Assembly (NCBI GenBank): GCA_047618505.1
Contig: JBLHLB010000028.1
Location: 1-21,876, forward strand
DNA from: Planctomycetota bacterium
Lineage (GTDB): Bacteria > Planctomycetota > UBA1135 > GCA-002686595
Length of the DNA stretch: 21,876 nt
Direction: 5' to 3'
Part shown: positions 1-20,379 of the stretch, in pieces
How the letters are laid out: every line of letters begins with the position of its first letter
How positions within the stretch are numbered: position 1 is the stretch's first letter
Translations under genes and position numbers: made by a program
The notes under the pieces: model-generated
What the model was told of the DNA's origin: nothing
Database searches by the model: none
Seen by the model: only the letters and a program-made list of their open reading frames with translations

Positions 1-1
1 C

Positions 2-55
2 TTCGTCCTCGCAAGCATCGCCGCCGCCGTCTACTTCTTCCTGATCCGCGAATAG
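2..55 (+). CDS. 3' end of an upstream gene running in from the window edge; hydrophobic C-terminal tail FVLASIAAAVYFFLIRE then TAG
   Basis: Frame 2 is open from the window start to TAG at 53-55. The translated tail looks like the end of a TM helix. Only 18 codons are visible. Confidence 0.3.
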   Translation, partial: FVLASIAAAVYFFLIRE

Positions 56-110
56 GGCGATCCATATGGACCTTCGTTGTAGGGAAACCAAGAGCAGGGG
101 AGCGCGGTCG

Positions 111-2384
111 ATGGGGTGGTTGCTCCTGGGTGCGATCCCGCTTCTCGGCTCCCTCGGTCACAGTTCCTTCGCCCCTCTTTTTCCTGGGGGCAGCGCTTCA
201 GAGGCCGGCGATCCGGTGGGCCAGGACTCGAACCGTCCCTTCCTGCACTACGATCACGTTGCGGCACCCTGGTTGAATCCCGATTTAGGTGAAGTCGAGC
301 GCGATTGCCTTGGGTGTCACGACCTGGACGCGCCCTGGAGTGACGTCAACGCCAAGGCGCTCTGCGCGAAGTGCCACTACCAGTACACGGCGACGGTTCC
401 TGAGTTTCCGGTGGACCAGAAGGTGGCAACGGACGGGACGCTTGGCTTCGGCTACGCGTCGATGGAAGTCTTCCTACACGGTGAGCATGGCACTCTGACC
501 TGTCGCGAGTGCCATGCACCCGACTCCTTCCGTCAGGGGCAGATTCTGAAGTCGATTCCGCAGTCCGCGACGATGGTGATTCGGCGCGGGATCAACGAGT
601 GTCAGCGATGCCATGAAACAGGCAGTTTGGAGACCCTTGGTCGGCCGCTAGAGGCACGCTCTGGTGACTCCGCCGGTCTTGAGGCGGACAGCTTCTTCTC
701 CGGTCTCAACGGAGATCCGAGCATGGGGCCCGATGCATTGGGCGCGTTCATCCACGGCGAGCACATGCTGGATCCGGCGGCGTCCTTTAGCCTCTCAAGC
801 CTTCACGCCGATGCCGAAGGGTGCGCGACTTGCCACGCCGCGCTCCTGCTCGAGACTACACAGCGCTCGGCGCCGGAAGAGCTGCTTCCGCAGGCGGGTT
901 GCGATGAATGCCACGTTTCCGTCGACGACAGCGCCCTCTCTTTCAGGGGTCCATCGGAGGCGCTACCGTCCCTTTCCAGTGGGGCATTTTTCCACGGCGA
1001 CCATCTCCGTACGGGTGTTGCCGGCCGCGTTTCTGCAGGCGTTGCCAGTGCGGATTCCCATGCCCAGCTCGAGATCCAGAGCTGCAGCGTCTGCCACCAA
1101 GTCGGCGGCTCCGATGGTGGCCGCGAGTTCGCCTTCGACCTAGCCCAACCAGAATATAGCTATTTGGGATGCGCGCAGTGCCACGACACCCCCGCGTGGC
1201 AAACACAAGGTCACGGCGAATGGACCAGTTGCACGGATTGTCACAGCTTCAGCGGTCCGACCAGTGACCTAAGGACAGATCGGCCGCTTGCTGCCGAGCC
1301 GGTAGCGCGTCGTAGGCCTACGAGTTTTCGAATCGAAAGCCAAACGCACCGGATGATCACCGGGCTCACAAAGGCAGACCTGGATCAAGCCTGCGTCGAA
1401 TGCCATCGCGCCCCGGTCGAGTCCCTTCCCTCGCGCATTCGCGACACAGCCTTCCGTCACTCTACACATCTACCCGCGGAGTTCGACAGCGACGATTGCT
1501 TGCGTTGCCACAGTGAACCCGTGGCCCAGGCAAGTCGTTCCTGGGAGCTGGGTGGGGCCCTAGCGGGCAATTCGATCCAGCCTGCGGAGGACGGGGAAGC
1601 ACACCCGCGCTTCGGTCTGACCTACGATCCCGATAGCTGCAACGGGTGCCATGAGGGAGCAGTGATCACTCCTGTCCTCGCCCCGATCGAGACCAGTTTG
1701 ACTGTGGAATTCTCCCACGCCGGTCACCTCACACCTGAATTACTGGATCCTCTTGGGGAGCACGCAATTTCCTGTGGCGATTGCCACGGAGTACAGGGTG
1801 GGGCTGACCTTGGAGAGCCCGTGGATCCGTCGCGCTTCTTCGCCAAGCCCGCTGAGTGCTCCAGCTGTCACGACCATGGGGAGAACGCAGCGATTACAGC
1901 AAACTTCGGTGGTCTTGCTTCGAGCAGCGCGACGAGCTGTGCCCAATGTCACGGCGGGGGCCAAGGTGGGGGCATCCCATTCATCCGCAGCGGCGAACTC
2001 TTGGCGAGCTCAAGCCTCGCCCAGCGCGTCGCAACCGTCAGCGGAATCCAGGCACACCCGAACGACAGAAACTGCGAGACATGTCACGTCACCATGGGGA
2101 ATGAGTTGCGGAGCCCTGACGTTGCCCTAGGTCTTGTCTCCGTCGCCGGTATCAAGAAGAGGATGCACGGCGGAGACTATCCCCAGGTGGATCCCAATGC
2201 ACCAGCCGTGTCGGCGGACGGATCCAAGGAGCAGCAGACTTGCCTTTCCTGTCACTGGACTCTGATCGCCAGCTCGATGACGCAGGACCCCTTCAGCCCC
2301 GAGATTCGCGACGTCTTCGGCAGTCTGCTAGGGACTACACCGCCACGCACCTTCCCCGGCAGACCCGCGTCTGAGCTTCGATGA
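111..2384 (+). CDS. Secreted multiheme cytochrome c with 17 CxxCH motifs, built from c3/c7-type domains
   Basis: The ORF track gives 66..2384. I prefer the ATG at 111 (MGWLLLGAIPLLGSLGHSSFA, a Sec-type signal peptide) because GGGGAG lies 8 nt upstream. I count 17 CxxCH motifs: CLGCH, CAKCH, CRECH, CQRCH, CATCH, CDECH, CSVCH, CAQCH, CTDCH, CVECH, CLRCH, CNGCH, CGDCH, CSSCH, CAQCH, CETCH, CLSCH. F-x-H-x-x-H motifs recur before heme sites (FLHGEH, FIHGEH, FFHGDH, FRHSTH, FSHAGH), as in cytochrome c3/c7 distal His ligands. Confidence 0.9.
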   Translation: MGWLLLGAIPLLGSLGHSSFAPLFPGGSASEAGDPVGQDSNRPFLHYDHVAAPWLNPDLGEVERDCLGCHDLDAPWSDVNAKALCAKCHYQYTATVPEFPVDQKVATDGTLGFGYASMEVFLHGEHGTLTCRECHAPDSFRQGQILKSIPQSATMVIRRGINECQRCHETGSLETLGRPLEARSGDSAGLEADSFFSGLNGDPSMGPDALGAFIHGEHMLDPAASFSLSSLHADAEGCATCHAALLLETTQRSAPEELLPQAGCDECHVSVDDSALSFRGPSEALPSLSSGAFFHGDHLRTGVAGRVSAGVASADSHAQLEIQSCSVCHQVGGSDGGREFAFDLAQPEYSYLGCAQCHDTPAWQTQGHGEWTSCTDCHSFSGPTSDLRTDRPLAAEPVARRRPTSFRIESQTHRMITGLTKADLDQACVECHRAPVESLPSRIRDTAFRHSTHLPAEFDSDDCLRCHSEPVAQASRSWELGGALAGNSIQPAEDGEAHPRFGLTYDPDSCNGCHEGAVITPVLAPIETSLTVEFSHAGHLTPELLDPLGEHAISCGDCHGVQGGADLGEPVDPSRFFAKPAECSSCHDHGENAAITANFGGLASSSATSCAQCHGGGQGGGIPFIRSGELLASSSLAQRVATVSGIQAHPNDRNCETCHVTMGNELRSPDVALGLVSVAGIKKRMHGGDYPQVDPNAPAVSADGSKEQQTCLSCHWTLIASSMTQDPFSPEIRDVFGSLLGTTPPRTFPGRPASELR

Positions 2385-3454
2385 ACGCAAGCCTCTTCAG
2401 AACGCGTTATCTCCTCTATGGCGCCATCATCAGTGCGGGCTTTATCGCCTGGTGGCAGGTCGGCGGCTTTGCCCTCGGGCGCGGTGGCGATGGCAATGTG
2501 AGCTACCTGCTTTGGTCCGGTTGGGTTGCGGTTGCGCTCTATCTGGCGGTGATTGCCTACGTCGGTCGCAAGTACATCCAACGCGTCAAGCGTCCCCCCA
2601 CGCGCGATGAAGTCGCCGCTTACGAGGCGTCCATCGACCGGGCCGAAACGCGTATCAAGAAGGTCGAGCGCGAAATCCTAAGTGGTGTGCTCAAGGCCGA
2701 AGGCGACATACGCAAGCGTGTGCAGGCGATCTGCAGGGATGAGGGCGTCACAAAGTTCAAGCACCCCGTGCTGATCGCCGGTGAAGGGGGCGCTCCAGCC
2801 TTTCGTGTGGAGTTAGTCTCTAACGAGCCCGCCGGCCGCGTCATTGTTTGGCTGCACGCGCACCTCTACTTCGGCCTCGCAGCCGCGGTCCTTGTGATTC
2901 TCCATGGCGGACTTGTCTGGAGCACGCCCATGGGCTTGCTCCTGAACGGCCTGAGTTTTCTGGTGACGATCACCGGTGTCATCGGCGTGTACTACTGGGC
3001 CGTAGGGCCATCCATGCTGACTCGAGCAGAGGGGAATTTCACGATCGAGGAGGCCTTCGCGCTCGAGCGACACTTTGCCCTCAAATTGGAAGACGCCTTC
3101 ACTCCGCCGGTGAAGAACCCGGAGAAGGAAATCGATAAGGCCTACGAGAAGGACAAGGTCGTCTTTGACGAAGTCGTCAAGCTTCAGGGCTTCGCCAAGT
3201 CCTGTGCCAAGGAGCCCAGCCCCGCTAAGGTCGAGCAGCAGTTGACCGCCGTCCTCTCCGAGGACGCCAAGGTCGCGGGCCTCCAACGGGACGTCGCCGT
3301 CCTCATCGCCCAACGCGGAAAGGCCGGCGATGAGCTGCGCCGCCTATCGCGTATCCGCTTCCTGATCAATTCCTGGCGCGTCGTGCACGTGCCCGCTTCC
3401 ATCGCCCTGGTGGGAGTTCTCGTCGTTCACATCTTCACCGTGTGGATGTACTGA
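2381..3454 (+). CDS. Integral membrane protein with about 5 TM helices; putative di-heme b-type transmembrane electron carrier
   Basis: The ATG overlaps the upstream stop (ATGA at 2381-2384). Hydrophobic segments sit at about aa 10-32, 43-63, 153-180, 184-209 and 333-357. Both intervening loops (aa 64-150 and 210-330) are K/R-rich, so they should be cytoplasmic. H161/H175 in TM3 and H336/H350 in TM5 are each exactly 14 residues apart in helices of the same orientation, which is the classic bis-His spacing for two stacked b hemes. Confidence 0.75.
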   Translation: MNASLFRTRYLLYGAIISAGFIAWWQVGGFALGRGGDGNVSYLLWSGWVAVALYLAVIAYVGRKYIQRVKRPPTRDEVAAYEASIDRAETRIKKVEREILSGVLKAEGDIRKRVQAICRDEGVTKFKHPVLIAGEGGAPAFRVELVSNEPAGRVIVWLHAHLYFGLAAAVLVILHGGLVWSTPMGLLLNGLSFLVTITGVIGVYYWAVGPSMLTRAEGNFTIEEAFALERHFALKLEDAFTPPVKNPEKEIDKAYEKDKVVFDEVVKLQGFAKSCAKEPSPAKVEQQLTAVLSEDAKVAGLQRDVAVLIAQRGKAGDELRRLSRIRFLINSWRVVHVPASIALVGVLVVHIFTVWMY

Positions 3455-3457
3455 GCC

Positions 3458-4963
3458 ATGGCAGCCCAAACAGATAACAGCGACGTCCTGGCCCAGTTGG
3501 GGCGACTCGCTCCCTTTGCCGACCTCGGCGAAGAGACCAAGCAGAACAAGAAGCAGCGTGCCGCGCTCCTGGAGTTCCACCGCTTCGAAGACTACTCCCG
3601 CGGCGAAGTGATCATCGAGCAGGGGGAATTCACCGGCGAATTCTGTGTCGTCATCTCCGGCTCCGTGGCCGTCTTCCGCTCCGAGGATGGGTCCATCAAT
3701 CGCCTGGGCAATCTGGGCTCGGGGGAGTGGTTCGGCGAAATGAGCGCCCTCTCCTTCCAGGCCGCAGTGGCGCAGGTGCGCTCGGAGTCCCGCGCCTTGG
3801 TCCTGGTGATCGACCAAGCGCTCTTCAAAACGCTCTATGAAGCGGCCAAGGGCAAGAGCGCCTTCAAGGCGGCGATCGACGAAAAGTACCGCCAGCGCGC
3901 CCTCTCCCTGCACCTGCGCGTGGCGCCGCTCCTGGCAGAGTTGAGCGTCGCCGACCTAGAGTCCATTGGCCAACGAGCGGAGCTCGTGCGTTTCGAAGAA
4001 GGCGACGTGGTCGCCGAGCAGGGAGTGAAGGCCGATGCCGTCTACCTGATTCGAAGCGGCGCGGTGAAAGAAGTACGCCGGGATGAGAAAGGCTCTGAGC
4101 GCGTGCATTCCTACTATCGCGGCAACTCCTCGGTCGGGGAAAACTGCCTCGCACGGGAGGACGTTTCCTGGCGCGGGACCCTGACGGCCATGACGCCCAC
4201 GGATGTGGTCAAGATTCCCGTGGGCGTGTTCCTGGAGATCTTCGGCGCAACGGGGGCAGCGGCCGCGAACGAGAGTCAGACCCTGAGCAGGCTGCGCCTG
4301 GCGGCGGATCGAATCGCCGCGGAGGATCGCGGTGTCGAAACAGGGGGCTCCAGCGACGAACTTGACGTGATGGTCGGCGCCGAAAGCGCCAAGGGCGGCA
4401 AGGCGCTGGTGATCGACCTGGACAAGTGCACTCGCTGCAATGCATGCGTGGAATCCTGTGTCGCTGCCCACGAAGACGGTATTCCGCGGCTCTCCAAGAA
4501 GGGCAATCGCATCTCGTCGAACAAGGTGTTGTCGTCGGCCTGCTACAGCTGCGAGATCCCGGACTGCATGCAGTCCTGTGACTTCGGTGCAATCCGTCGC
4601 GACGTGAACGGATCGATCCGCTTCATCTACGATAACTGTACGGGCTGCACGCTCTGCGTTCCCGCCTGTCCCTATGACGTCATTCGCATGACGCCTCCGC
4701 CTAACCAGCCGGATTCGCGTCCCCCGGGCTTCCTGGAGAGCATTCCATTTCTGGGCAAGCTCCTGGCGCCGAAACGTCCCGAGGAAATCGACGCTGGCGA
4801 GAAGGTCTTGGCGGCACGCACCCAGGGAGCGGTGGCCGGCAAAGCCATCAAATGCGATCTGTGTGCGGGCTTGCCCTATGAGGCCTGTGTCTACAACTGT
4901 CCCTGCGGCGCCATCGATCGCTTCGATCCGGCTGCCCTCTTTGCTGGCGAGGAATCCAAGTAG
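3458..4963 (+). CDS. Cytoplasmic fusion protein: two tandem cNMP-binding (CAP-effector-like) domains plus a C-terminal four-cluster [4Fe-4S] ferredoxin domain (NrfC/PsrB/HybA-like)
   Basis: There is a 3-nt gap after the upstream stop and no signal peptide. cNMP-like domains cover aa ~18-130 (GEWFGEMSAL...) and aa ~150-262 (VGENCLAREDVSWRGTLTAM). Four Cys clusters follow: C324-x2-C-x2-C-x3-C, C362-x2-C-x4-C-x3-C, C394-x2-C-x2-C-x3-CP, C466-x2-C-x7-C-x3-CP. Confidence 0.9.
   Translation: MAAQTDNSDVLAQLGRLAPFADLGEETKQNKKQRAALLEFHRFEDYSRGEVIIEQGEFTGEFCVVISGSVAVFRSEDGSINRLGNLGSGEWFGEMSALSFQAAVAQVRSESRALVLVIDQALFKTLYEAAKGKSAFKAAIDEKYRQRALSLHLRVAPLLAELSVADLESIGQRAELVRFEEGDVVAEQGVKADAVYLIRSGAVKEVRRDEKGSERVHSYYRGNSSVGENCLAREDVSWRGTLTAMTPTDVVKIPVGVFLEIFGATGAAAANESQTLSRLRLAADRIAAEDRGVETGGSSDELDVMVGAESAKGGKALVIDLDKCTRCNACVESCVAAHEDGIPRLSKKGNRISSNKVLSSACYSCEIPDCMQSCDFGAIRRDVNGSIRFIYDNCTGCTLCVPACPYDVIRMTPPPNQPDSRPPGFLESIPFLGKLLAPKRPEEIDAGEKVLAARTQGAVAGKAIKCDLCAGLPYEACVYNCPCGAIDRFDPAALFAGEESK
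3509..3847 (+). other. cNMP-binding-like domain 1 of the ferredoxin fusion protein
   Basis: Beta-roll signature G-x-GE-x-FGE-x-AL. The canonical phosphate-binding Arg appears to be replaced (SFQAAVAQV). Confidence 0.6.
3905..4243 (+). other. cNMP-binding-like domain 2 of the ferredoxin fusion protein
   Basis: FEEGDVVAEQG...YLIRSGAV...VGENCLA...WRGTLTA pattern, with an Arg present in the putative phosphate-binding cassette. Confidence 0.6.
4400..4927 (+). other. 4x[4Fe-4S] ferredoxin domain (16 Cys in four cluster motifs)
   Basis: CTRCNACVESC / CYSCEIPDCMQSC / CTGCTLCVPACP / CDLCAGLPYEACVYNCP. Confidence 0.85.
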
Positions 4964-4969
4964 GTCGCC

Positions 4970-7141
4970 ATGGCAAAGGAAGCAGATCCTGAAGGCGGCG
5001 CGGGCGTGATGCGATTTAGCATTCCTGGCAAACGCAAGAGCGATGCAGCCCGCTTGGCGAGCGTCGCCGATCGCATCACGGTAGGCTCCGCTCGTTCCTC
5101 TGACCTGTCTATCGACGATCCTGTAGCGTCGGATGAACATTGCGTCCTTACCTTCAAGGACGGGCGCTTCTTTGCGGAGGACGCGAATAGCTCGACTGGT
5201 ACCTACTTGAATGGGCTGTCCGTGCAGGCACCCGTTGAGATCGCCGAGGGCGACTCGCTGGTCTTGGGCGTCAGTCGCATCACATTCAAGATCGAGACGA
5301 GCGACGCCGGGCCGACCCTGGTGATGTCCCTAGCCGAGAAGTCCTTCTATTTCGTTGAGAAGGGCAAGCCGGCCAAGAACGGCAAGAAGCGCACCCTCGC
5401 GGATCTTTATCAGTGGGTGCGATCCGAGGTCGTCTTCGGCCGCTCCCGGATGTTGACCTGGGGGAACTTCGCGGCCGGTGGACTAACTCTTGTGCTCTTC
5501 GGTGTGGTCTTCGCAGCCAGCGTGCGCGAGCCCCTGTCGGATCCCGGACACCTGCATGCCTCGCACCAGATGTTGTTTGATGAGGGGCTGAGTGCCGAGC
5601 AGCGGGATCTGCTGAACGCTTCCTACCCGGACGCTCTGACTCTGGCGACGGCCCAAGGCTGCGATGTTTGCCACTCGTCCTTTGGGGGGACGCCGGCGGA
5701 AAAGTGCGCCCAATGCCACGGCGACATCGTCGGTGAACAGCAACATCCAGGGCTCAGCGCCGGACTCAGCGATCCCCAGGCCTGGTGGGCGGACACCGGC
5801 TGTGTGCGTTGCCACACGGATCACACTCGCGATGCCGCCTGGGACTTCATCCCATCGGTGCAGAAGACCCAGGCTTCCTGTGGTGAGTGCCACGCCGAGG
5901 ATCGCCACCCGGCGGGGGATATGCCAATCGCTCCAGTCGAGGGACAGCGGCAGACATCTATCGCCTACAACGACTTCTCCCACGCGGATCACCTGAAGCG
6001 CGTGGACGGCGGAGCAGCGGTTGCCTGCTCGCTTTGCCATGTCGAAGTGACAGAGGGCGCTGGGGTCTCGGTGGCCGCGAGCCTAGGGCGTAACTTTGCC
6101 CCCGCCGATTACGACGTTTGCACACGCTGCCACATCGCTGGGCAAGTCGACGCATCGATCCCAGAGGAGTTCCTGCCCGTAGCCATGACCTTGGCCTGGC
6201 ACGGCACGGATGACGGCGAGGAGAACTGCACCCAGTGTCACGCAGAGCTGTACCAGGATACCTTGGCGACCGTGGAGTTGCAGCGCGCGGTCAATCAGCT
6301 CTTCAGCTTGCCGACACGGGTCACCCACGGCGAGTTCATCAAGGGTCACGTAGAATTCGAAGTGGAGGCGGCGGGCAGTGTCGAGGCCTGCATCGATTGC
6401 CACCGCGATTCAAACGTGACGCCCCAGGCAATCCCCGCCCAGCCCTTCCTGCATGGGTTGCACCTGTCGGAGCTGCAGCCGGCGACGCCCGCCGATGCGC
6501 GTCGTTTGAGCGCGGCTGCTGGTGAGTGCCTGTCCTGTCACCAGGGCATCGACCAGGTCAGCACCCTGAGCGGCGATGCCTTTGCTGGGGCCGAGGGCCA
6601 ATGCGCCGATTGCCACACCAACGGCGTACCCGCGGCCTTCCGGGAGCCGGCTTCCCTGGACACCGCCGTGGAGTTTCCCCACGACGTTCACACCAGGGCC
6701 TTCTCCACCTCCAAGACACTGGAGATGGGCTGCTTCGCTTGCCATGAGTTCGCCGAATCAGATCTCTTTGCGGCGGAGATTAGCACCAATAGCGACGCCC
6801 AGAGTTGCATGGACTGCCACGCTAAGCACAACAACATGGCGGGAGCCGTGGAGGGCTGTGCCGTCTGCCACGAGGTCGGTGTCGATTCGCATGAGGGCAG
6901 TTATTGGGGCAAGACGATTTCGAAGAAGTGGCCCGCCGCAAACACCTTCGACCACTTCAGCACAGGCCACGCCGCGGGGGCAGCCATGGACCTCACCGGC
7001 ACCGCCGGCTGCACCGAGTGCCATGCTGTCGATGGTCTTTGGGACGCAACCTCGATCCTTGACGTCACCATTCCCACCGAGGCCCAGGCCGAGTGCCGTG
7101 AGTGCCACGTGAACGGGAAGCAACGGTTTCATTGGCGATGA
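4970..7141 (+). CDS. N-terminal cytoplasmic FHA domain, one TM helix, then a periplasmic multiheme cytochrome c with 15 CxxCH motifs
   Basis: There is a 6-nt gap after the upstream stop. FHA signature at aa ~13-105: ITVGSARSSDLSIDDPVASDEHCVL...DANSSTGTYLNG...GDSLVLG. TM helix at aa ~163-185 (WGNFAAGGLTLVLFGVVFAASV). I count 15 CxxCH: CDVCH, CAQCH, CVRCH, CGECH, CSLCH, CTRCH, CTQCH, CIDCH, CLSCH, CADCH, CFACH, CMDCH, CAVCH, CTECH, CRECH. F-x-H-x-x-H motifs also present: FSHADH, FLHGLH, FPHDVH. Confidence 0.9.
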   Translation: MAKEADPEGGAGVMRFSIPGKRKSDAARLASVADRITVGSARSSDLSIDDPVASDEHCVLTFKDGRFFAEDANSSTGTYLNGLSVQAPVEIAEGDSLVLGVSRITFKIETSDAGPTLVMSLAEKSFYFVEKGKPAKNGKKRTLADLYQWVRSEVVFGRSRMLTWGNFAAGGLTLVLFGVVFAASVREPLSDPGHLHASHQMLFDEGLSAEQRDLLNASYPDALTLATAQGCDVCHSSFGGTPAEKCAQCHGDIVGEQQHPGLSAGLSDPQAWWADTGCVRCHTDHTRDAAWDFIPSVQKTQASCGECHAEDRHPAGDMPIAPVEGQRQTSIAYNDFSHADHLKRVDGGAAVACSLCHVEVTEGAGVSVAASLGRNFAPADYDVCTRCHIAGQVDASIPEEFLPVAMTLAWHGTDDGEENCTQCHAELYQDTLATVELQRAVNQLFSLPTRVTHGEFIKGHVEFEVEAAGSVEACIDCHRDSNVTPQAIPAQPFLHGLHLSELQPATPADARRLSAAAGECLSCHQGIDQVSTLSGDAFAGAEGQCADCHTNGVPAAFREPASLDTAVEFPHDVHTRAFSTSKTLEMGCFACHEFAESDLFAAEISTNSDAQSCMDCHAKHNNMAGAVEGCAVCHEVGVDSHEGSYWGKTISKKWPAANTFDHFSTGHAAGAAMDLTGTAGCTECHAVDGLWDATSILDVTIPTEAQAECRECHVNGKQRFHWR
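5006..5290 (+). other. FHA (phosphothreonine-binding) domain of the cytochrome fusion
   Basis: G-x-x-R ... S-x-x-H ... N-S-S-T-G-T-x-L-N-G ... G-D-x-L pattern typical of FHA domains. Confidence 0.7.
5456..5524 (+). other. Single transmembrane anchor separating the cytoplasmic FHA domain from the periplasmic heme domain
   Basis: A 23-residue hydrophobic stretch preceded by a K/R-rich segment (KGKPAKNGKKR...GRSR). The first CxxCH is at aa 231, after the helix. Confidence 0.7.
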
Positions 7142-8793
7142 CCTCCAAGGGACCCCCCATTCGACTGGAATATACAGTCGCAGGTGTCGGTTCATCCTTC
7201 GCCTTCGATCCTGGAGTGATTCAGGTGGGGCGCGAGCCGAAGTGTGACCTGGTAATCGATGACGAGTGGATGTCCCGTTCCCATGCGACGCTCTCGTTTG
7301 AAGAGGGGCGCTGGATCGTGCGCGACACCAAGAGCGCGAACGGCACCAGGGTCAACTCCCGGCGCATCAGGGAGGAAGCCCTAACCGATGGGGATCACAT
7401 CCGCTTCGGTCGTATCGATGTGCTCTGCAGTATCCCCGAAGAGGCGGGCAACAGGATCGACTTCGTGGACGTGGATATGGAGGGACTGATGACCCAATCC
7501 ATCGCGGTGGGGGACTTCGATCAGCTCCTGCGCTCCGTCTTGCAACCGGAGGAAAAGCCCGCCGATGGAACGGCGAAGATTACCCGTTCTCCCGCCGCCG
7601 CTGGTCAGGACCAGGACGAGCCTTCGGCGCTCGGGGACGTTGCTTGGATTCTGCAGGTCGTCAAGGGCACTACTGAGGCGTTGGTTTCCGTCGACGAACT
7701 CAATCAGGTCTTGGACCGAATTCTGGTGCTGGTTTCAGAGCACCTCAAGATGGACTACGGCGTCATTTACCTTTGCGAAGAGGGGCTTGAGGATCTCGAG
7801 AAGATGGCCGAGCACTGCGGTCGTCTGCACGGCGAAACCCAGCCCGTGCAGATCAGCCTGAGTGTTGCGCGCACAGCGGTCGAGAGGCGCGAAGCCGTGT
7901 TGATCACGAACGCTGGGGACGACGAGCGTTTCGCGGGGATCCAGAGCATTGTTTCCAGTGGAACGCAGTCCGCCGTTTGCGCTCCCTTGATCCACCAGGG
8001 CAAGGTACTGGGGCTGATTTACGTTCTTCAGACTGCGCTCGGCGAGACCTACAACACCACGCACCTGGGGGTCCTCTCGATCCTGGCGGGACTCTCGGCG
8101 GCAGCCGTGGACCGCGCGCGTTTACGCGAGGGTATGGAGCTTGAGAAGCAAAAGCGCGTGCGGCTCTCTCGCTACCACGCGCCGGCAGTTGTTGAACGAA
8201 TCATCCGTGATGGCTCAGGAGAAATGACCTCCTACGAGCGCGAGATCACGGTGCTCTTTGGCGACATCGTTGGCTTCACCGCCTTGGCCGAACGCCTTTC
8301 CGCAGGCGAGGTTACGCGGATCCTGAACGAGATCTTCCAGGGGATCACTGACGCTGTCTTTGATCAGGGTGGCACCCTGGACAAGTTTATCGGAGATGCC
8401 GCGATGGCATTTTTTGGGGCACCTAACGAACAGACGGACCATGCGGAGCGTGCCGTGCGTGCTGGGCTTGCCATGCAGGCCGGTCTGCGTGACTACAACG
8501 CGGGCAGGGCCCCGGCGGACTGTTTGGGCATGCGTATTGGCATTAACAGCGGCGTCGCCATTGTCGGCGACGTGGGGGCCCTTCAACGCAAGGACTTCAC
8601 CTGTATCGGAGACGCGGTCAACGTCGCCAGCCGCCTGGAGTCCACCGTGGCTGAGGAGGGCCAGGTCGTGATTGGCCCGCGAACCTTTGAGTTGCTGGCG
8701 GGATGCATGGAGACCAAAACACTGCCGCCCAAGCCTCTCAAGAACAAGCTGACTCCGATCCAGCCGTACCTTGTTGTTGATCCAGAAGCCTGA
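7138..8793 (+). CDS. FHA - GAF - class III adenylate cyclase (CHD domain)
   Basis: The ORF track gives 7102..8793. The ATG at 7138 overlaps the upstream stop as ATGA, so I prefer it. FHA: VGREPKCDLVIDDEWMSRSHATL...SANGTRVN...GDHIRFG. GAF at aa ~195-340. Cyclase domain: VLFGDIVGFTAL...KFIGDAAMAFFGAP...MRIGINSGVAIVGDVG...CIGDAVNVASRLES. Confidence 0.9.
   Translation: MTSKGPPIRLEYTVAGVGSSFAFDPGVIQVGREPKCDLVIDDEWMSRSHATLSFEEGRWIVRDTKSANGTRVNSRRIREEALTDGDHIRFGRIDVLCSIPEEAGNRIDFVDVDMEGLMTQSIAVGDFDQLLRSVLQPEEKPADGTAKITRSPAAAGQDQDEPSALGDVAWILQVVKGTTEALVSVDELNQVLDRILVLVSEHLKMDYGVIYLCEEGLEDLEKMAEHCGRLHGETQPVQISLSVARTAVERREAVLITNAGDDERFAGIQSIVSSGTQSAVCAPLIHQGKVLGLIYVLQTALGETYNTTHLGVLSILAGLSAAAVDRARLREGMELEKQKRVRLSRYHAPAVVERIIRDGSGEMTSYEREITVLFGDIVGFTALAERLSAGEVTRILNEIFQGITDAVFDQGGTLDKFIGDAAMAFFGAPNEQTDHAERAVRAGLAMQAGLRDYNAGRAPADCLGMRIGINSGVAIVGDVGALQRKDFTCIGDAVNVASRLESTVAEEGQVVIGPRTFELLAGCMETKTLPPKPLKNKLTPIQPYLVVDPEA
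7213..7425 (+). other. FHA domain of the cyclase
   Basis: Canonical GR...SRxH...NGT.VN...GD motifs. Confidence 0.8.
7684..8121 (+). other. GAF domain
   Basis: The region between the FHA and cyclase domains has a GAF-like pattern (LDRILVLVSEHLKMDYGVIYL...KVLGLIYV). Confidence 0.55.
8239..8736 (+). other. Class III nucleotidyl cyclase catalytic domain; the Lys/Thr specificity pair suggests a class IIIb adenylyl cyclase
   Basis: Metal-binding Asp in FGDIVGFT. Substrate-specifying Lys in DKFIGD. Thr at the position of the second specificity residue (DFTCIGDAVN). Transition-state Asn and Arg in VNVASR. Confidence 0.75.
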
Positions 8794-8821
8794 GGTGCTC
8801 GATGGGCGCAGCTGCTAGGCG

Positions 8822-8854
8822 CAGTGGCTTCTACCCACCGGATTCAAGCCACTG
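8822..8854. terminator. Hairpin between convergent genes: CAGTGGCTT, 15-nt loop, AAGCCACTG
   Basis: Perfect 9-bp inverted repeat about 29 nt after the cyclase stop, overlapping the stop codon of the minus-strand gene. No U-tract. Confidence 0.3.
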
Positions 8855-10382
8855 GCTGGGTCTCACTCATCGCCTCCGCCTCCTCGGGCGTGAAGGCCTT
8901 GGAGTTGTAGCCGAAGACATCTTCGAGGGTCTTGAACATGTTCGGGCCCGCGCTGATTTCGATGTCGCGCATGGTGAATTGACCCGGATGGATGTAACCG
9001 CAGGCGTGGGTAATGGCGTTGATGTCGTTGCGCAGTGCTGAAACGTAGTTCTTGAAACGCGCGGCGTTCGTCGGCACGTGCAAACCACGCTGAAGGTAGC
9101 CGTTCTGGGTCGCAACACCGGTGGGGCAGAAGCCCGTGTGGCATTTCTGTGCCTGGATACAGCCGATGGCGAGCATGGATTCGCGCGCGATCTGGATCAG
9201 GTCCGCTCCCATGGCTAGGGCCACGATCGCGCGGTCCGGAAAGCCGAGCTTGCCGGAGCCGACCCAAACCATTTTGTCGGCGATGCCAGCATCATCAAAG
9301 ATCTTGAAGACGCGGCTGAACCCGACCTTGTAAGGCAAGGATACGTGGTCTGCGAAGGTCAGGGGTGCAGCTCCGGTTCCGCCCTCGCCACCGTCAATGG
9401 TGATGAAGTCGGGGCCGCGTTTGCCGTCTTTCATCTTGTCGGCGAGCACCTCGAAGAACTCGAGTTGACCGATAGCAGACTTGATGCCGACCGGGAGTCC
9501 CGTCGCTTCAGCGATGCCTTCGATGAAGTCGATCATCCCATCGATGTCCGAGAAGGCCTTGTGGCTGTTCGGGCTGATGCAGTCCTTCCCCATGGGGATG
9601 CCGCGGATCTTGGAGATCTCTTCGGTTATCTTGGCCGCCGGGAGCACGCCGCCCTTGCCTGGCTTCGCGCCCTGGCTCAGCTTGATCTCGATCATGCGCA
9701 CGCGCGGTACTTCCTTGATCAAGTCCTGCAGCATGCCCAGGTCGAACTCGCCCGCCTCATTCCGGCATCCGAAGTAGCCAGTGCCAATCTGCAAACAAAT
9801 GTCCGCGCCCTTGCGGTGGTAGGGCGAAACGCCGCCTTCACCGGTGTTGTGATAACAGTCCGCTTGGAAAGCGCCCTCATTGAGCGCTTGGATTGCGTGG
9901 GCCCCAAGAGAGCCAAAGCTCATGGCGGAGATGTTGATGATAGAGGGCGGACGGTAGGGGTTAGAGCGCCCGTGCCATTCCCCCAAGACCTTCGCACAGG
10001 GAATGCTCGCGGTCTTGTCCGAGTGACTCCCCGTGAAGGCTTCGTCGCCGTAGGGAAAGACAGCGTGCTTAATAATCGGATAGCCGATGCCATAGATCTG
10101 GTCATCGGTGCCGAATCCGAAGTAGTTGTTCTTCTTGTCAGCGGATCGGTCGATCCATTCCCGTTCACTGCGATTGAAGGGCGCTTCTTCGCGGTTGCTG
10201 GCCACGACGTATTGACGCAACTCCGGGCCGATTTCGATCAACAGATAGCGCAGGTGCCCCAGGACCGGGAAGTTGCGCAAGATGCTCTTCTTCGTCTGGG
10301 TTAGGTCATGACCCAGAATGAGAATGAAGACGATCCCGACGATGATGGCCCAGATTTCCCAGCGAGCTAGATACTCAAGCAT
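8844..10382 (-). CDS. Glutamate synthase family (GltB FMN-binding domain-like) protein with an N-terminal membrane anchor
   Basis: Strong resemblance to the GltS central FMN domain (GEGG...ITIDGGEGGTGAAP...). Cx5Cx4C 3Fe-4S motif CIQAQKCHTGFCP. N-terminal hydrophobic helix WEIWAIIVGIVFILILG. Confidence 0.85.
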   Translation of the reverse strand: MLEYLARWEIWAIIVGIVFILILGHDLTQTKKSILRNFPVLGHLRYLLIEIGPELRQYVVASNREEAPFNRSEREWIDRSADKKNNYFGFGTDDQIYGIGYPIIKHAVFPYGDEAFTGSHSDKTASIPCAKVLGEWHGRSNPYRPPSIINISAMSFGSLGAHAIQALNEGAFQADCYHNTGEGGVSPYHRKGADICLQIGTGYFGCRNEAGEFDLGMLQDLIKEVPRVRMIEIKLSQGAKPGKGGVLPAAKITEEISKIRGIPMGKDCISPNSHKAFSDIDGMIDFIEGIAEATGLPVGIKSAIGQLEFFEVLADKMKDGKRGPDFITIDGGEGGTGAAPLTFADHVSLPYKVGFSRVFKIFDDAGIADKMVWVGSGKLGFPDRAIVALAMGADLIQIARESMLAIGCIQAQKCHTGFCPTGVATQNGYLQRGLHVPTNAARFKNYVSALRNDINAITHACGYIHPGQFTMRDIEISAGPNMFKTLEDVFGYNSKAFTPEEAEAMSETQPVA

Positions 10383-13672: not shown

Positions 13673-15802
13673 CTAGATGAACCAGGGCAGGAACACCAGG
13701 CCCACAACCGTCATCAGCTTGACGAGGATGTTGAGGGAGGGTCCCGAGGTGTCCTTGAAGGGGTCACCAACGGTGTCACCGACGACAGCGGCCTTGTGGG
13801 GCTCGGAGCCCTTGCCGCCGTGGGCGCCGCCTTCGATGTACTTCTTCGCGTTGTCCCAGGCACCGCCTGCGTTGGACATGAAGATGGCCATCATGACGCC
13901 CGTGACGAGGGCGCCGGCGAGCAGACCACCGAGGGCCTGGACGTTCCAGAAGCCCACGAGGATCGGGGCTAGGACGGCGATGACGCCGGGGACGATCATT
14001 TGCTTGAGGGCACCGTCGGTGGAGATCTCAACGCAGCGAGCGGCGTCCGGGGGCGTGGTGCCCTCCATGATGCCGGGGATCTCGCGGAACTGACGGCGAA
14101 CTTCTTCGACCATGGCGAAGGCGGCGTTGCCGACGGCGCGCATGGTCAAGGCGCTGAACAGGAAGGGCAGGATGCCGCCCAGCAGCATGCCAATGATGAC
14201 ATTGGTCGTGTTGATGTTCAGCATCAGGAAGCCGGTGCTTTGGTCAAGCATTCCGGTCAGCTTGGCGATTGCCCCCTCGTCCGTCATGCCTGCGACACGT
14301 TCGGTCACCAGGGAGCCGGCGCGGATGCAGAAGGCGCCGAAGAGCGCCAGGGCTGTCAGAGCGGCGGACCCGATGGCGAAACCCTTGCCGATGGCGGCCG
14401 TCGTGTTACCGACGGCGTCGAGTGCGTCCGTACGCTGACGAACCACTTCGGGCAGCTTGGCCATCTCGGCCAGTCCACCGGCGTTGTCAGCCACGGGGCC
14501 GTAGGCGTCAACACCGAGGGATATACCCAGGGTGGAGAGCATTCCGACGGCGGCTAGGGCGACGCCGTAGACGCCGGCCATGTAGTTGGAGAAGAAGATC
14601 GAACCGCAGATTAGAAGCACGGGGACGACCACCGATTCCATGCCCGTTGCCAGGCCGTGGATGATGTTGGTGGCAGCGCCGGTTTCGGACTGCTTGGCGA
14701 TGTTCTGGACCGGGTGCGTGTCGGTCGAGGTGTAGTACTCGGTGATCTTGCCGATGGCGACGCCGATCACGAGACCGGAGACGATAGATAGCAGAAGAGC
14801 CAAGCCCGTGCTCATGTCGTGATCGACACCGACGAGGGTTTCCGGCAGATTGAGCACGTCGGTCAGCGTGAGGAACGCGGTGGCCGCGACGACTACTGCG
14901 GAGGCGACAAGCAGTCCGCGGAAGAGTGCGGAGTGCAGGGCGTGCTCGTCATTGGCCTTCACAAAGAAGGTGCCGATGATCGAGGCGATAATCCCCATAG
15001 CCGAAACGGCGATCGGCAGAACCACGATGCCAGACATGCCGGGGTCCCCGGCGTAGGCGAAGGCGCCCAGTGTCATGGCGGCGATGATCGAGCCCACATA
15101 GGACTCGAACAGGTCCGCACCCATGCCGGCCACGTCACCGACGTTATCACCGACGTTGTCCGCGATGGTGCCGGGGTTACGGGGGTCGTCTTCGGGGATG
15201 CCCTGCTCGACCTTGCCGACGAGGTCGGCGCCGACGTCCGCGGCCTTGGTGAAGATGCCACCACCGACGCGACTGAAGAGGGCGATGGCTGAGGCGCCGA
15301 AGCTGAAGCCCAGGACGTACTCGAGGTTCTTAGAGTCGAGATCGGAGGCGTAGGCCAGCGTGAAGCCGACGACGCCTAGTAGCGCCAAGCCGACTACGCT
15401 CATGCCCATCACTACACCGGAGCTGAAGGCAACGCCCAGGGCGTCCGACAGACTCTTCGTTGCGGCCTGGGTGGTACGGACCGCAGCGCGGGTTGCGGTG
15501 TGCATGCCGAAGTAGCCGGCCAAGGCCGAAGCGAAGGCGCCTGCGACGAAGGCACCTGCAGTTTTCGGGCCGAGGCCGTCATCAGCGCTCGAGGCACCGA
15601 TGGCGATGGCGACGATGACCACGAAGATCGCAAGCCACTTGTACTCCGCTTTCAGGAAGGCGGCGGCGCCGTCCTGCACAAGCTTGGAGATGTCCTGCAT
15701 CTGTTGAGTGCCGGCATCCTGCTTCATGATGCCACCGAATTTCACGATGGCGTAAACAAGAGCGATGACGGCGGCACCGCCGGCGACGTAGAGGAATTCC
15801 AT
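13673..15802 (-). CDS. hppA: Membrane-bound proton-translocating pyrophosphatase (H+-PPase)
   Basis: Diagnostic motifs [35 protein letters not shown] and [22 protein letters not shown]. About 16 TM helices. 709 aa. Confidence 0.95.
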
Positions 15803-15817
15803 AAGTACGTCCGAGCT

Positions 15818-15874
15818 GATCTCGAATTGGGTGGCTGAGGAGCGGCTTCGAGATCAAAAAGGTGGTGGATCTCG
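15818..15874 (-). promoter_or_regulatory. Three copies of GATCTCG(AA) in the hppA 5' leader or promoter region
   Basis: GATCTCGAA (15818-15826) and TTCGAGATC (15847-15855) form a 9-bp inverted repeat. GATCTCG (15868-15874) is complementary to the middle copy again. The three lie 16-72 nt upstream of the hppA start codon. Confidence 0.3.
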
Positions 15875-15956
15875 CGCCGGGAAGGGAACCGTTTTAGGCC
15901 CCCGCCTCCGGGATTTTGGGCCAACAGTCTAGCCTGGGTCCTCCACAGGTCAATCC

Positions 15957-15998
15957 AGTGGGGCCCGGAGTGGGGCCCGGAGTGGGCCCGGAGCCCCG
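15957..15998. repeat. 12-nt tandem repeat AGTGGGGCCCGG, about 3.5 copies
   Basis: Copies at 15957-15968, 15969-15980 and 15981-15991 (the third is one G short), then a degenerate AGCCCCG. Each copy contains the self-complementary GGGCCC. The array lies 19-60 nt downstream of the dedA stop on the minus strand. Confidence 0.6.
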
Positions 15999-16016
15999 CC
16001 GCGGACGCCCGCTTTC

Positions 16017-16787
16017 CTAGGCCTCAGGGCCCGATTCGGACTCTTTTTCCAGCCCGGCACCGAATCCCAAGTCGGACTTGGGGGTGAATTTATCTGCTTG
16101 GGCCGCCATATCGACCGCTTCCTCGGGGGGGTCATCCCCGATCCACCTGCGGCGGGACAGCTTGGACTTGCGTTGGCGCCAGCCACGGATGACCAGGATC
16201 AGCACCAGACTGAGGGCGATGAAAGCCAGGATCAGGTGCAGATCGTGCATCGTGGACTTCAGGCGGTCGATTTGGGTCGCAAACAGCTTGCCCACCCAGA
16301 TCGAGATCGGAACCGTTAGAAGAACCCCAAGACCATCCAGGAGCAGGAATCGAAGGGTGTTCATCCCCATCGTCCCGGCCATGAAGTAGCCCGGGATGCG
16401 CGCGCCGGGGAAAAAGCGGAAGGAGAAGGTGGCCCAGCTGCCGTGCTCGTCAAAGCGCTCCTTCAGGCGCTTGAAACGGCGAGGGTGAAAGCGCCGTCTG
16501 ATCCAGGGCTTGTCGAGGGCTGTGGCCCCGTACTTCTTGCCCAGCATGAAGGGGATCGAGTCCCCCAGGAGGATCGCGCTGGAGCAAACCACCACGATGG
16601 GGAGGAATTCGACCTGGCCCTGGTGCAGTAAGAGACCTGCCCCGATCAGTGAGACTTCCTCCGGCAGGGGCAGACCGACGCCACAGAGGAGCAGAACGAT
16701 GAAGGGGGCCAGGTAGCTGAAGTCGCCAAAGAGCTGGTTCAGGGTCCCCTGCTCCTCTATCAGTGCCAGAAATGCCAGGTCCATCAT
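16017..16787 (-). CDS. DedA / SNARE-associated (VTT domain) family membrane protein
   Basis: Signature LPLPEEVSLIGAGLL and the G-x-x-x-M re-entrant region (FMAGTMGMN). About 4-6 hydrophobic helices. 256 aa. Confidence 0.8.
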   Translation of the reverse strand: MMDLAFLALIEEQGTLNQLFGDFSYLAPFIVLLLCGVGLPLPEEVSLIGAGLLLHQGQVEFLPIVVVCSSAILLGDSIPFMLGKKYGATALDKPWIRRRFHPRRFKRLKERFDEHGSWATFSFRFFPGARIPGYFMAGTMGMNTLRFLLLDGLGVLLTVPISIWVGKLFATQIDRLKSTMHDLHLILAFIALSLVLILVIRGWRQRKSKLSRRRWIGDDPPEEAVDMAAQADKFTPKSDLGFGAGLEKESESGPEA

Positions 16788-19408: not shown

Positions 19409-20379
19409 TGCGCAACCGCCCCCGACGGAACCGCAAGAGCGCGGCCCTGCGCGAATTCGCCGCAGAGACCGCGCTCTCCGCCGATCGCTTCGTTTGGCCT
19501 GTCTTCATCCACGAAGGCGACCAGGACGAGGCGATCGACTCCATGCCGGGACAGTCGCGACTGTCACCGGAAGGTCTTCTGCGGGAAGTCGAAGGGGCCC
19601 TGGGGGAGGGGGTGCGGTCGATCGTGCTCTTTCCCCGTGTACCGGACGAGTTGAAGCATTCAGACGGGCGTGCCGTCCGAGATGCGGAGGGGTTGGTGCC
19701 GCGCTCGATCCGCGAGCTGAAGTCGCGCTTCCCCGAGCTGACGATCATCACCGATGTCGCCCTGGATCCCTACTCGCCGGATGGACACGACGGTATCGTC
19801 GCGCCGGATGGTCGGATCTTGAATGACGAGACCGTGGAGGTCCTCTGCGATCAAGCTGTGGTTCAGGCGGAAGCCGGGGCCGATGTGATCGCGCCCAGCG
19901 ACATGATGGACGGGCGTATCGGTGCGCTTCGCGATGCCTTGGACGCACGTGGTTTCACGGAGGTTTCACTGCTTTCCTATAGCGTGAAGTACGCCTCGGC
20001 CTTCTACGGTCCCTTCCGCGATGCACTGGATTCCGCGCCGAAGTCGGGCACGAAACAGAGCTATCAAATGGACCCGCGCAACGCGCGCGAAGCCCTGCGT
20101 GAGATCGCCCTGGACGAGAGCGAAGGTGCCGACATGTTGATGGTCAAGCCCGCCGGTGCGTACCTGGATGTGATCCGTGCCGTGCGCGATGTGACCACGC
20201 TGCCGGTGGCGGCCTATCAGGTTTCGGGCGAGTACGCGATGCTTGAGGCGGCGGCGCAAAACGGATGGCTGGATCGCCGCGCCGCTGTCCTAGAGAGCCT
20301 CGTGGCGATTCGTCGCGCCGGCGCGGACATGATCCTGACCTACTACGCGCGCAGGGCCGCGCGCTGGCTGGCAGAGTAA
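19408..20379 (+). CDS. hemB: Porphobilinogen synthase (delta-aminolevulinate dehydratase), Mg2+-type
   Basis: N-terminus RRNRKSAALREF. Active-site region SYSVKYASAFYGPFRD with the Schiff-base Lys in MVKPAGAYLDVI. An Asp-rich metal site DVALDPYSPDGHDG replaces the Cys-rich Zn site. The start overlaps the flotillin stop (TGATG). Confidence 0.95.
   Translation: MRNRPRRNRKSAALREFAAETALSADRFVWPVFIHEGDQDEAIDSMPGQSRLSPEGLLREVEGALGEGVRSIVLFPRVPDELKHSDGRAVRDAEGLVPRSIRELKSRFPELTIITDVALDPYSPDGHDGIVAPDGRILNDETVEVLCDQAVVQAEAGADVIAPSDMMDGRIGALRDALDARGFTEVSLLSYSVKYASAFYGPFRDALDSAPKSGTKQSYQMDPRNAREALREIALDESEGADMLMVKPAGAYLDVIRAVRDVTTLPVAAYQVSGEYAMLEAAAQNGWLDRRAAVLESLVAIRRAGADMILTYYARRAARWLAE

Follow-up and report, generated by a model that had tools for sequence, protein, structure and literature searches.

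A conserved Planctomycetota gene cluster for a candidate envelope-spanning electron conduit with FHA and cNMP-binding-fold modules

Planctomycetota are abundant in waters, soils and sediments, yet, anammox aside, little is known of their capacity for respiration and extracellular redox reactions. The locus described here is a set of five cytochrome, Fe-S and signalling genes (g1 to g5) in a 21,876 nt stretch of DNA from a Planctomycetota bacterium (GenBank accession number JBLHLB010000028.1), which is referred to in full as the window. Features of several described systems recur in it. The MtrCAB, Pcc and Ext conduits for extracellular electron transfer (EET) likewise use large bis-His multiheme periplasmic cytochromes, and the Tmc and Hmc complexes of sulfate reducers are built in the same three layers, with a multiheme cytochrome in the periplasm, a cytochrome b in the membrane and an Fe-S protein in the cytoplasm. 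In NarH-NarI and FdnH-FdnI, a four-cluster ferredoxin of the DmsB family, located in the cytoplasm in Nar, is combined with a small membrane protein whose two His pairs lie on two helices. The literature searched yielded no description of the cluster, in agreement with an earlier note on this DNA, which knew of no characterised complex of such composition. The sole trace was an entry in a Gallionellaceae pangenome table, 'Forkhead-associated protein, 10 hemes, 27 genomes' (PMC10734462).

The reading that we prefer, and to which we give about an even chance, is that the locus belongs to a conserved envelope-spanning conduit of Planctomycetota that exports electrons from the cytoplasm to the envelope, bypasses quinones and is under regulation. 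A cytoplasmic reductant, either ferredoxin or NAD(P)H acting via a flavoprotein/2Fe-2S reductase, would reduce the four [4Fe-4S] clusters of g3, which would dock on the cytoplasmic face of g2, and g2 would move the electrons across the membrane via bis-His b hemes. The membrane-anchored 15-heme g4 and the 17-heme g1 would conduct them through the periplasm, and an outer-membrane module encoded upstream in relatives, consisting of an 18-strand beta-barrel and a ~10-heme lipoprotein with an LVIVD propeller, would take over from there. The quinone pool would thus be bypassed, as in an NADPH oxidase lengthened by a heme wire. Control would come from phospho-Thr (pThr)-dependent docking of forkhead-associated (FHA) domains, with canonical FHAs on a multi-FHA scaffold and on accessory enzymes governing flow or assembly, and from an ancestral cyclic-nucleotide input to g3; the window lineage may instead emit cAMP via an FHA-GAF adenylate cyclase.

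Gene set and a candidate route across the inner membrane

All five open reading frames (ORFs) lie on the plus strand. The first, g1 (positions 111–2384, or from an ATG at 66), encodes a periplasmic 17-heme c-type cytochrome by Pfam match and CXXCH count, and g2 (2381–3454, 357 aa) a membrane protein with five transmembrane (TM) helices that is a candidate di-heme b subunit. Next, g3 (3458–4963, 501 aa) combines two domains of the cyclic nucleotide (cNMP)-binding fold with a four-[4Fe-4S] ferredoxin domain, g4 (4970–7141) consists of a cytoplasmic FHA domain, a single TM helix and a periplasmic 15-heme c-type cytochrome, and g5 (7138–8793, 551 aa) contains FHA, GAF and apparent class IIIb adenylate cyclase domains. 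At the g1/g2 and g4/g5 junctions the genes share an ATGA overlap, and gaps of 3 nt and 6 nt separate g2 from g3 and g3 from g4, so that the translational coupling claimed in the earlier note was borne out. Its list of cofactor-bearing parts was also correct; the Pfam and NCBIfam searches returned every domain call, g2 alone matching neither library, and the Cys and His motif counts agreed.

The same note had treated the five genes as a complete operon, which held for the coupling but not for the completeness. Bases 2..55 of the window (plus strand) encode the 3′ end of a further gene, cut by the window start, with a hydrophobic C-terminal tail (...FVLASIAAAVYFFLIRE*) and a stop codon 10 nt ahead of the ATG at 66. 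As every relative sharing the window gene order also has further upstream genes, the five genes are the distal part of a longer operon truncated by the window start. No promoter- or terminator-like site above chance was found within positions 1–9000.

Relatives were collected in a scan of one genome per GTDB species, which gave 141 relatives and 78 kept loci, nearly all from Planctomycetota metagenome-assembled genomes. The counts below refer to 83 non-duplicate loci, many of them truncated, in which the six-frame translation was searched with queries derived from this analysis.

The heme content of the two periplasmic cytochromes is nearly fixed. In g1 all 34 Cys fall within the 17 CXXCH motifs, alongside 39 His, and a signal-like hydrophobic segment is present at the N-terminus with either start (ATG 66 or ATG 111); exactly 17 motifs were counted in 47 of the 51 loci that have a gene of the g1 type. 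The 15 CXXCH of g4 recur exactly in 62 of its 73 homologues. Both proteins are made of multiheme c7/c3/MtrC-like modules according to Pfam and NCBIfam, with matches to Cytochrome_C7 (1.5e-25 for g1, 4.9e-21 for g4) and, for g1, to MtrC/MtrF II-IV (3.9e-15). The FHA domain of g4 was detected with an E-value of 4.3e-15 (56 bits).

Four groups of Cys of the CxxCxxCxxxC type were found in g3 (324/327/330/334, 362/365/370/374, 394/397/400/404 and 466/469/477/481), and all 16 residues were invariant in 24 homologues. This Fe-S half aligned along its length with ArrB (6cz7_B) and HycB (7z0s_B) and has the features of the four-cluster DmsB/NrfC/HycB family. The N-terminus (MAAQTDNSDVLAQ...) leads into the cNMP domains with no twin-Arg and no hydrophobic signal, and because neither a signal peptide nor a Tat motif is present, g3 is placed in the cytoplasm, like NarH and HycB. 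At least 316 full-length homologues were found at ~45% identity.

The part of the proposed route that crosses the membrane depends on g2. An alignment of eight homologues contained exactly four invariant His, His161 and His175 on TM3 and His336 and His350 on TM5, with 14 residues between the members of each pair, and all four were retained in 128 of the 129 family representatives that cover those positions. This is the pattern sought in a di-heme protein, namely two conserved His pairs on two TM helices with the residues 12–14 apart. The protein has two long K/R-rich loops (residues 64–155 and 211–330), and the positive-inside rule predicts that both loops and the N-terminus are cytoplasmic, in which case TM3 and TM5 would be parallel. 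His161 and His336 would then hold the inner heme of the proposed path and His175 and His350 the outer heme. An AF2 model (pLDDT 77) has helices at the predicted TM positions. No specific solved relative was found by sequence or by fold, and a profile search against the sequences in the PDB returned only coiled-coil noise, while one g2 relative gave sub-threshold matches to the Ni_hydr_CYTB (prokaryotic cytochrome b561) and Ferric_reduct models. On these comparisons g2 belongs to a new membrane protein family. It is not a small one: an exhaustive profile (HMM) search covering 1.84 billion cluster representatives recovered 81 at E<1e-30, 287 at E<1e-10 and 1353 at E<1e-3, overturning the suggestion from a word-index search (8 matches) that it is extremely rare.

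Gene order, fusions and electron donors in relatives

The genes g2, g3 and g4 were found in that order in about 74 of the 83 loci and form a syntenic core; a cyclase gene was found in three loci only. Individually, g2 was present in 74 loci and the FHA-TM-cytochrome in 73, followed by a tail-anchored multi-FHA protein (60) and the free large cytochrome of the g1 type (51). Less frequent were a protein of ~595 aa, here called X595 (30), an LVIVD-heme protein (22), a pentaheme protein of 600–700 aa (17), an FNR-type reductase with FHA, FAD_binding_6, NAD_binding_1 and Fer2 domains (15) and a Ser/Thr kinase (7). About 19 loci carry a Pyr_redox-FHA-Fer2 reductase of 823 aa (e.g. L041, 16013–18484, minus strand), which is unrelated to the FNR-type enzyme and gives the same core another FHA-tagged NAD(P)H reductase. 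Three layouts were distinguished. One, with the order seen in the window, runs barrel, LVIVD-heme, multi-FHA, 17-heme, g2, g3, 15-heme; another carries the FNR-type reductase and the pentaheme protein; and the third is divergent, with the Pyr_redox reductase. In loci that encode one of these FHA-tagged flavin/2Fe-2S reductases, NAD(P)H would be the donor to the conduit. Genes downstream of g4 in loci with the window order were unrelated, apart from a kinase in L072.

Gene fusions carry the argument for contacts between the subunits. P0253 (1110 aa) consists of Pyr_redox, two cNMP domains, Fer4 and a C-terminal g2-like TM domain, and P0271 (865 aa) of two cNMP domains, Fer4 and a g2-like TM domain. 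In L087 and L088 the order is Pyr_redox-cNMP-Fer4 (799 aa), a g2-like protein (285 aa) and an FHA-like-TM-10-heme cytochrome, followed by an HbpS-like protein, an X595 homologue (3e-125) and an LVIVD-heme protein. These fusions and this gene order are the strongest argument for docking of g3 on g2 and for a flavoprotein of the NAD(P)H type as the cytoplasmic input. The continuous redox path proposed in the earlier note, from cytoplasmic Fe-S clusters through membrane hemes to periplasmic hemes, is made plausible by the synteny, the fusions and the four conserved His, and we retain it at that strength.

Homologues of g2 at 38–54% identity share the window gene order, and in two of the corresponding loci, L001 (a 6.5 Mb contig) and L002, three more co-directional genes precede the window-like set. 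X595 (554–2341 in L001) has no Pfam match and appears to be an 18-strand outer-membrane beta-barrel with an AlgE/OprD-like fold, found in L001 and ~30 other loci. The LVIVD-heme protein (~1300 aa) combines 9–10 CXXCH with LVIVD repeats (propeller) and has a lipobox-like LLPGC, and the multi-FHA protein (~530 aa) has two or more FHA domains and a single C-terminal TM helix. The X595 family, with at least 6965 homologues at 55–72% identity of which every named member is called 'hypothetical', exceeds the other proteins of the cluster by far in conservation and abundance.

In L001, L002 and 15 other loci the gene ahead of the 17-heme cytochrome or g2 encodes a protein with two to four FHA domains and one C-terminal TM helix, and all 17 multi-FHA proteins inspected end in such a single helix. 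This fits the tail FVLASIAAAVYFFLIRE at the start of the window, which is therefore probably the end of a tail-anchored multi-FHA protein. Exact-sequence look-ups with g3 and g1 of the window matched no record that would supply its own upstream DNA, a metagenome scan with g1 gave one fragment at 26% identity, and the near-identical contig L007 begins at g2. As no upstream DNA of the window lineage was recovered, its upstream genes are taken to be those of L001 and L002.

Other genes recur in these loci. The pentaheme protein (L010, 12088–14025, minus strand; L020, 1326–3314, minus strand; and 15 other loci) mostly stands alongside the FHA-FNR-Fer2 form of the cluster and may be a periplasmic terminal enzyme in place of the outer-membrane module. 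Comparison with solved structures was not informative (best match cytochrome c554, E 0.046, with NapC/NirT also weak). Proteins of 590–800 aa with a C-terminal HbpS-like/GlcG domain were found beside the cluster in 20 loci, for example in L041 (3573–5984, minus strand), L087 (10820–12721, plus strand) and L001 (1–193, minus strand). Two loci titled Luminiphilus sp. (L039) and Bacteriovoracaceae (L021) carry a typical planctomycete cluster, and these labels probably reflect mis-binning or mislabelling rather than transfer.

Signalling domains and neighbouring genes

The earlier note had seen a pThr input in the two FHA modules of the window. In a comparison of 152 segments aligned with GarA, the residue pattern agreed with this claim for g5 and not for g4. 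The pThr-binding Arg is absent from all 76 FHA domains of the g4 type, replaced by T/S/G/A/V, and so is the Asn, replaced by T/S/V/L/A; the His and the Gly-Thr are retained, and the Ser has become Ala in 65 of the 76, the window copy being among those that keep it. Given these losses, the g4 FHA is probably a degenerate, phospho-independent module. The canonical Arg/Ser/His/Asn were present in the FHA domains of all three cyclases, where VGR, SRSH and ANGT of g5 align with the R/S/H/N of GarA (Pfam FHA 70 bits, E 2e-19), and canonical residues were also found in all 15 FNR-type reductases. In the multi-FHA proteins the Arg is kept in 51 of 58 domains. On this residue pattern the FHA domains of g5, the FNR-type reductases and the multi-FHA proteins appear to be genuine readers of pThr.

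A Ser/Thr kinase is adjacent to the cluster in at least 7 Planctomycetota loci, with one more (L072) identified by Pfam, and a Ser/Thr kinase, a PP2C phosphatase and a CHASE2-cyclase are encoded near the L087 and L088 clusters, the kinase and PP2C genes being adjacent in L087. Because canonical FHAs occur together with adjacent kinases and a phosphatase, phosphorylation-dependent docking or gating is suggested. Large Ser/Thr kinases with an FGE-sulfatase-like domain were seen directly downstream of the cluster in L002 (18372 onward), L016, L024 and L072, and could be the enzymes that set the pThr marks recognised by the FHA domains; the window has no such kinase.

The cNMP modules of g3 were examined in the same way. 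The cNMP-binding cassette has the form Gly-Glu ... Arg-[Ser/Thr/Ala]-Ala, in which the Arg contacts the cyclic phosphate. Two stretches of g3 matched cNMP_binding (PF00027; E 1.6e-32, 111.8 bits against a cut-off of 27.5), together with Fer4 families, and the nearest solved domains are those of PKG and PKA-R. The cassette was placed by eye against the motifs of PKA, CRP, MlotiK1 and HCN2 rather than by HMM alignment. Its Gly-Glu is kept in both domains in 120 of 121 homologues. At the position of the phosphate-binding Arg, domain 1 has Ala103 in the window and a mixture across the 121 homologues (A33/S31/R21/E20/Q14), and the corresponding position of domain 2, again placed by eye, is Trp238 in the window and Trp in 119 of the 121. 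Both domains therefore have the fold and lack the canonical Arg. A canonical phosphate-binding cassette was found in some family members, such as P0110 (RSATVKA), and in the distant fused proteins (PRSAT, RRTAT).

The Pfam matches of g5 were FHA (2e-19), GAF (4e-15) and Guanylate_cyc (5e-26, 92 bits against a cut-off of 21.9), and the best solved match was CyaB of Pseudomonas aeruginosa (3r5g, E 3e-30). Both metal-binding Asp and the Lys, Thr, Asn and Arg align with CyaB (FGDIVGFT, DKFIGD, FTCIGDAVNVASRLE). The Lys/Thr pair points to class IIIb with ATP specificity, and by its residues g5 looks like a catalytically competent class IIIb adenylate cyclase. The gene was found only in the window (with its near-duplicate L007), L001 and L002, and is an accessory gene specific to the window lineage. 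In L002 the FHA-GAF-cyclase gene (14719–16380) is broken into three or four ORFs, either by decay of the accessory gene or by frameshift errors in a contig whose name carries the label 6x.

The earlier note saw a cAMP producer and a cAMP receptor in the same operon; in the closed loop that this suggests, the cAMP made by g5 would bind the cNMP domains of g3 and so gate electron transfer. The producer and the supposed receptor are indeed encoded together, the catalytic residues of g5 are intact, and ancestral cNMP control of such proteins is plausible in view of the distant relatives that have the canonical cassette and a nearby CHASE2-cyclase. However, in all three loci with a cyclase the essential Arg of domain 1 is replaced by Ala, a near-invariant Trp occupies the corresponding position of domain 2, and 80 of the 83 loci have no cyclase. 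We consider the loop very unlikely. That the complex recruits the cyclase and emits cAMP is likelier than that it reads its own cAMP, because the cassettes are degenerate and because the cyclase shares its slot: the place after g4 is taken by the cyclase in the window lineage and by the FNR-type reductase in the layout of which L005 is an example.

Convergent to g5, the window encodes a GltB-like membrane-anchored protein (8844–10382, minus strand; Glu_synthase, PF01645, 2.5e-76). A C-x5-C-x4-C motif resembling the 3Fe-4S site of glutamate synthase was read in it by eye. The convergent position is kept in L001, L002 and L007 and in no other locus, and the protein could be the missing flavoprotein partner in the window lineage, or its position merely inherited synteny. 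Between the two genes (8822–8854) a 9-bp inverted repeat, CAGTGGCTT ... AAGCCACTG, with a 15-nt loop was noted by eye, a possible bidirectional terminator hairpin without a T-run. Further along, a flotillin-like gene (17741–19408, plus strand) and hemB for porphobilinogen synthase (19408–20379, plus strand) overlap by one base and appear translationally coupled, which puts a heme-biosynthesis gene ~10 kb from a 32-heme operon.

Direction of electron flow and comparison with known systems

Several observations weigh against the outward, quinone-independent conduit that we prefer. No homology of g2 to any known cytochrome b was detected in the Pfam, NCBIfam, PDB profile and fold searches, the case for heme b binding comes from the conservation of its His residues, and g2 may have a quinone site. 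The outward direction is taken from the usual direction of FNR/PDR-type reductases, by analogy, and neither the window nor any locus of the same gene order encodes a flavoprotein donor. The outer-membrane genes are absent from the window itself and are supplied from relatives; with 18 strands against the 26 of MtrB, the barrel is the narrower of the two and may be unable to enclose a cytochrome, and X595 may be a general porin, since like-for-like searches gave at least 6965 homologues for it, compared with at least 316 for g3. A search of g3 and of the cytoplasmic part of g4 for conserved Thr residues suitable as FHA targets found no candidate.

In a rival reading, g2 would act as a quinol dehydrogenase or as a quinone reductase, comparable to NarI, FdnI, CybH or CbcL, and link the quinone pool to the multiheme cytochromes, with g3 auxiliary or regulatory. 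The lack of a flavoprotein donor in loci with the window gene order speaks for it. A four-cluster Fe-S protein on a 5-TM di-heme b subunit is the established design of NarH-NarI and FdnH-FdnI, and all characterised Gram-negative EET pathways are stated to begin at quinol. Nevertheless, we think this rather unlikely, because NAD(P)H flavoproteins are repeatedly fused to or co-encoded with g3 and g2, which points to a cytoplasmic donor, and because g2 has no above-threshold similarity to the NarI, FdnI, cytochrome b561 or NrfD families. Those same NAD(P)H reductases, with ~40 hemes and an outer-membrane barrel, far exceed what a sensor needs. This counts against a role in which the multihemes would report the redox state of the envelope or the outside, and the b hemes and Fe-S clusters would convert it into cytoplasmic signals (cAMP from g5, FHA/pThr) rather than carry bulk respiration. 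FHA domains occur on four types of protein, along with cNMP folds, a GAF-cyclase and nearby kinases and PP2C, and this unusual density of signalling domains fits a sensor, as does the receptor-like topology of g4 (periplasmic domain, one TM helix, cytoplasmic FHA). With a cyclase output in three of the 83 loci only, however, we judge the sensor quite unlikely.

The remaining alternative reverses the flow, with electrons from an extracellular or periplasmic donor such as Fe(II), reduced humics or a partner cell entering via the cytochromes, g2 and g3 to reach cytoplasmic ferredoxin or NAD(P)+. Mtr/Mto-like multiheme conduits are reversible, as is established and discussed in PMC10734462, and the FHA-tagged 10-heme cytochrome listed there comes from iron-oxidising Gallionellaceae. 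Uptake of this kind would run against the membrane potential and uphill to NAD(P)+, and the reductases found have a domain order (FAD-NAD-Fer2) that normally goes with oxidation of NAD(P)H, so that we see little chance of it.

If electrons do leave the cell by this path, the machine would be a respiratory or EET complex gated post-translationally and independent of the quinone pool. We put forward, more tentatively than the conduit itself and with real doubt, that it represents an unrecognised class of electron exporter, running from NAD(P)H or ferredoxin via Fe-S clusters and a di-heme protein to a wire of 30–40+ hemes, switched by FHA domains and phosphorylation and ancestrally also by cNMP. 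Such a class would be widespread in uncultured Planctomycetota, with simpler relatives elsewhere, and would add a new exit route for electrons, built of cytochromes of constant heme number (15 and 17), a new family of membrane heme proteins and direct entry from cytoplasmic Fe-S clusters. It would account for the use to which these lineages put so many hemes, and would be the first redox chain, in the literature searched, with FHA and cNMP modules on its subunits, placing respiration under eukaryote-like signalling at the protein level. The g2 family (~1350 representatives at E<1e-3) and the X595 family (at least 6965) are unannotated, and a role for them would improve the annotation of metagenomes.

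Set against the known systems, the cluster shares parts with several and gene content with none. The operons of relatives add a predicted outer-membrane beta-barrel and a ~10-heme lipoprotein, which may correspond to the outer-membrane parts of MtrCAB, Pcc and Ext, and both g1 and g4 match the Pfam MtrC/MtrF domain II/IV model. The inner-membrane entry is different: in place of the quinol dehydrogenases of the NapC/NirT or CbcL type that serve MtrCAB/Pcc (CymA, ImcH, CbcL), there is a new membrane protein with two His pairs and a cytoplasmic four-cluster Fe-S partner. The barrel has 18 strands instead of the 26 of Mtr, and neither Mtr nor Pcc has FHA or cNMP domains. Unlike Tmc and Hmc, the cluster lacks subunits like CCG/HdrD and NrfD as well as a cytochrome b of the NarI type, and its Fe-S subunit is DmsB/HycB-like with cNMP domains. 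The comparison with NarH-NarI and FdnH-FdnI is limited by the absence of a molybdopterin catalytic subunit, the dissimilarity of g2 to NarI and FdnI, and a periplasmic partner that is a heme wire. Scores against the NCBIfam models for the MtrC/DmsE family (TIGR03507, 30–33 bits against a cut-off of 209; TIGR03508, 32.6 against 192) and for the 16-heme HmcA (NF045713, 34.9 against 400) were far too low for membership, and NrfH and Qrc were excluded by sequence in the same way as Mtr, DmsE and HmcA. Alternative complex III, Qrc, Nrf and Dsr were rejected as families for the locus, as it has no NrfD-like subunit and the equivalog scores are far below cut-off.

The signalling side has its own parallels. 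In the FHA/kinase machines (Fha1/TagH-PpkA-PppA of T6SS, YscD of T3SS, GarA/OdhI), membrane complexes likewise carry FHA domains on their cytoplasmic side, some of our loci have kinase and PP2C genes close by, and the g5 FHA resembles those of GarA and Rv1747; in the literature searched, no characterised system joins FHA to a multiheme cytochrome or to the NAD(P)H reductase of a redox chain. P. aeruginosa CyaB and the GAF-regulated cyanobacterial CyaB1/2 share with g5 the catalytic domain, with its six catalytic and specificity residues, and an N-terminal GAF, whereas g5 adds an N-terminal FHA and is encoded last in a cytochrome operon. NOX, STEAP and MsrQ differ in having a flavoprotein that is here separate or differently fused, in lacking the four Fe-S clusters interposed here, and in passing electrons to O2 or Fe(III) where the acceptor here would be a c-heme wire; both matches of the g2 relative mentioned above were non-significant. 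By analogy with these systems, the cluster would work like a hybrid of a porin-cytochrome EET conduit, a Tmc/Hmc-type complex and an NADPH-oxidase-like, quinone-independent exporter.

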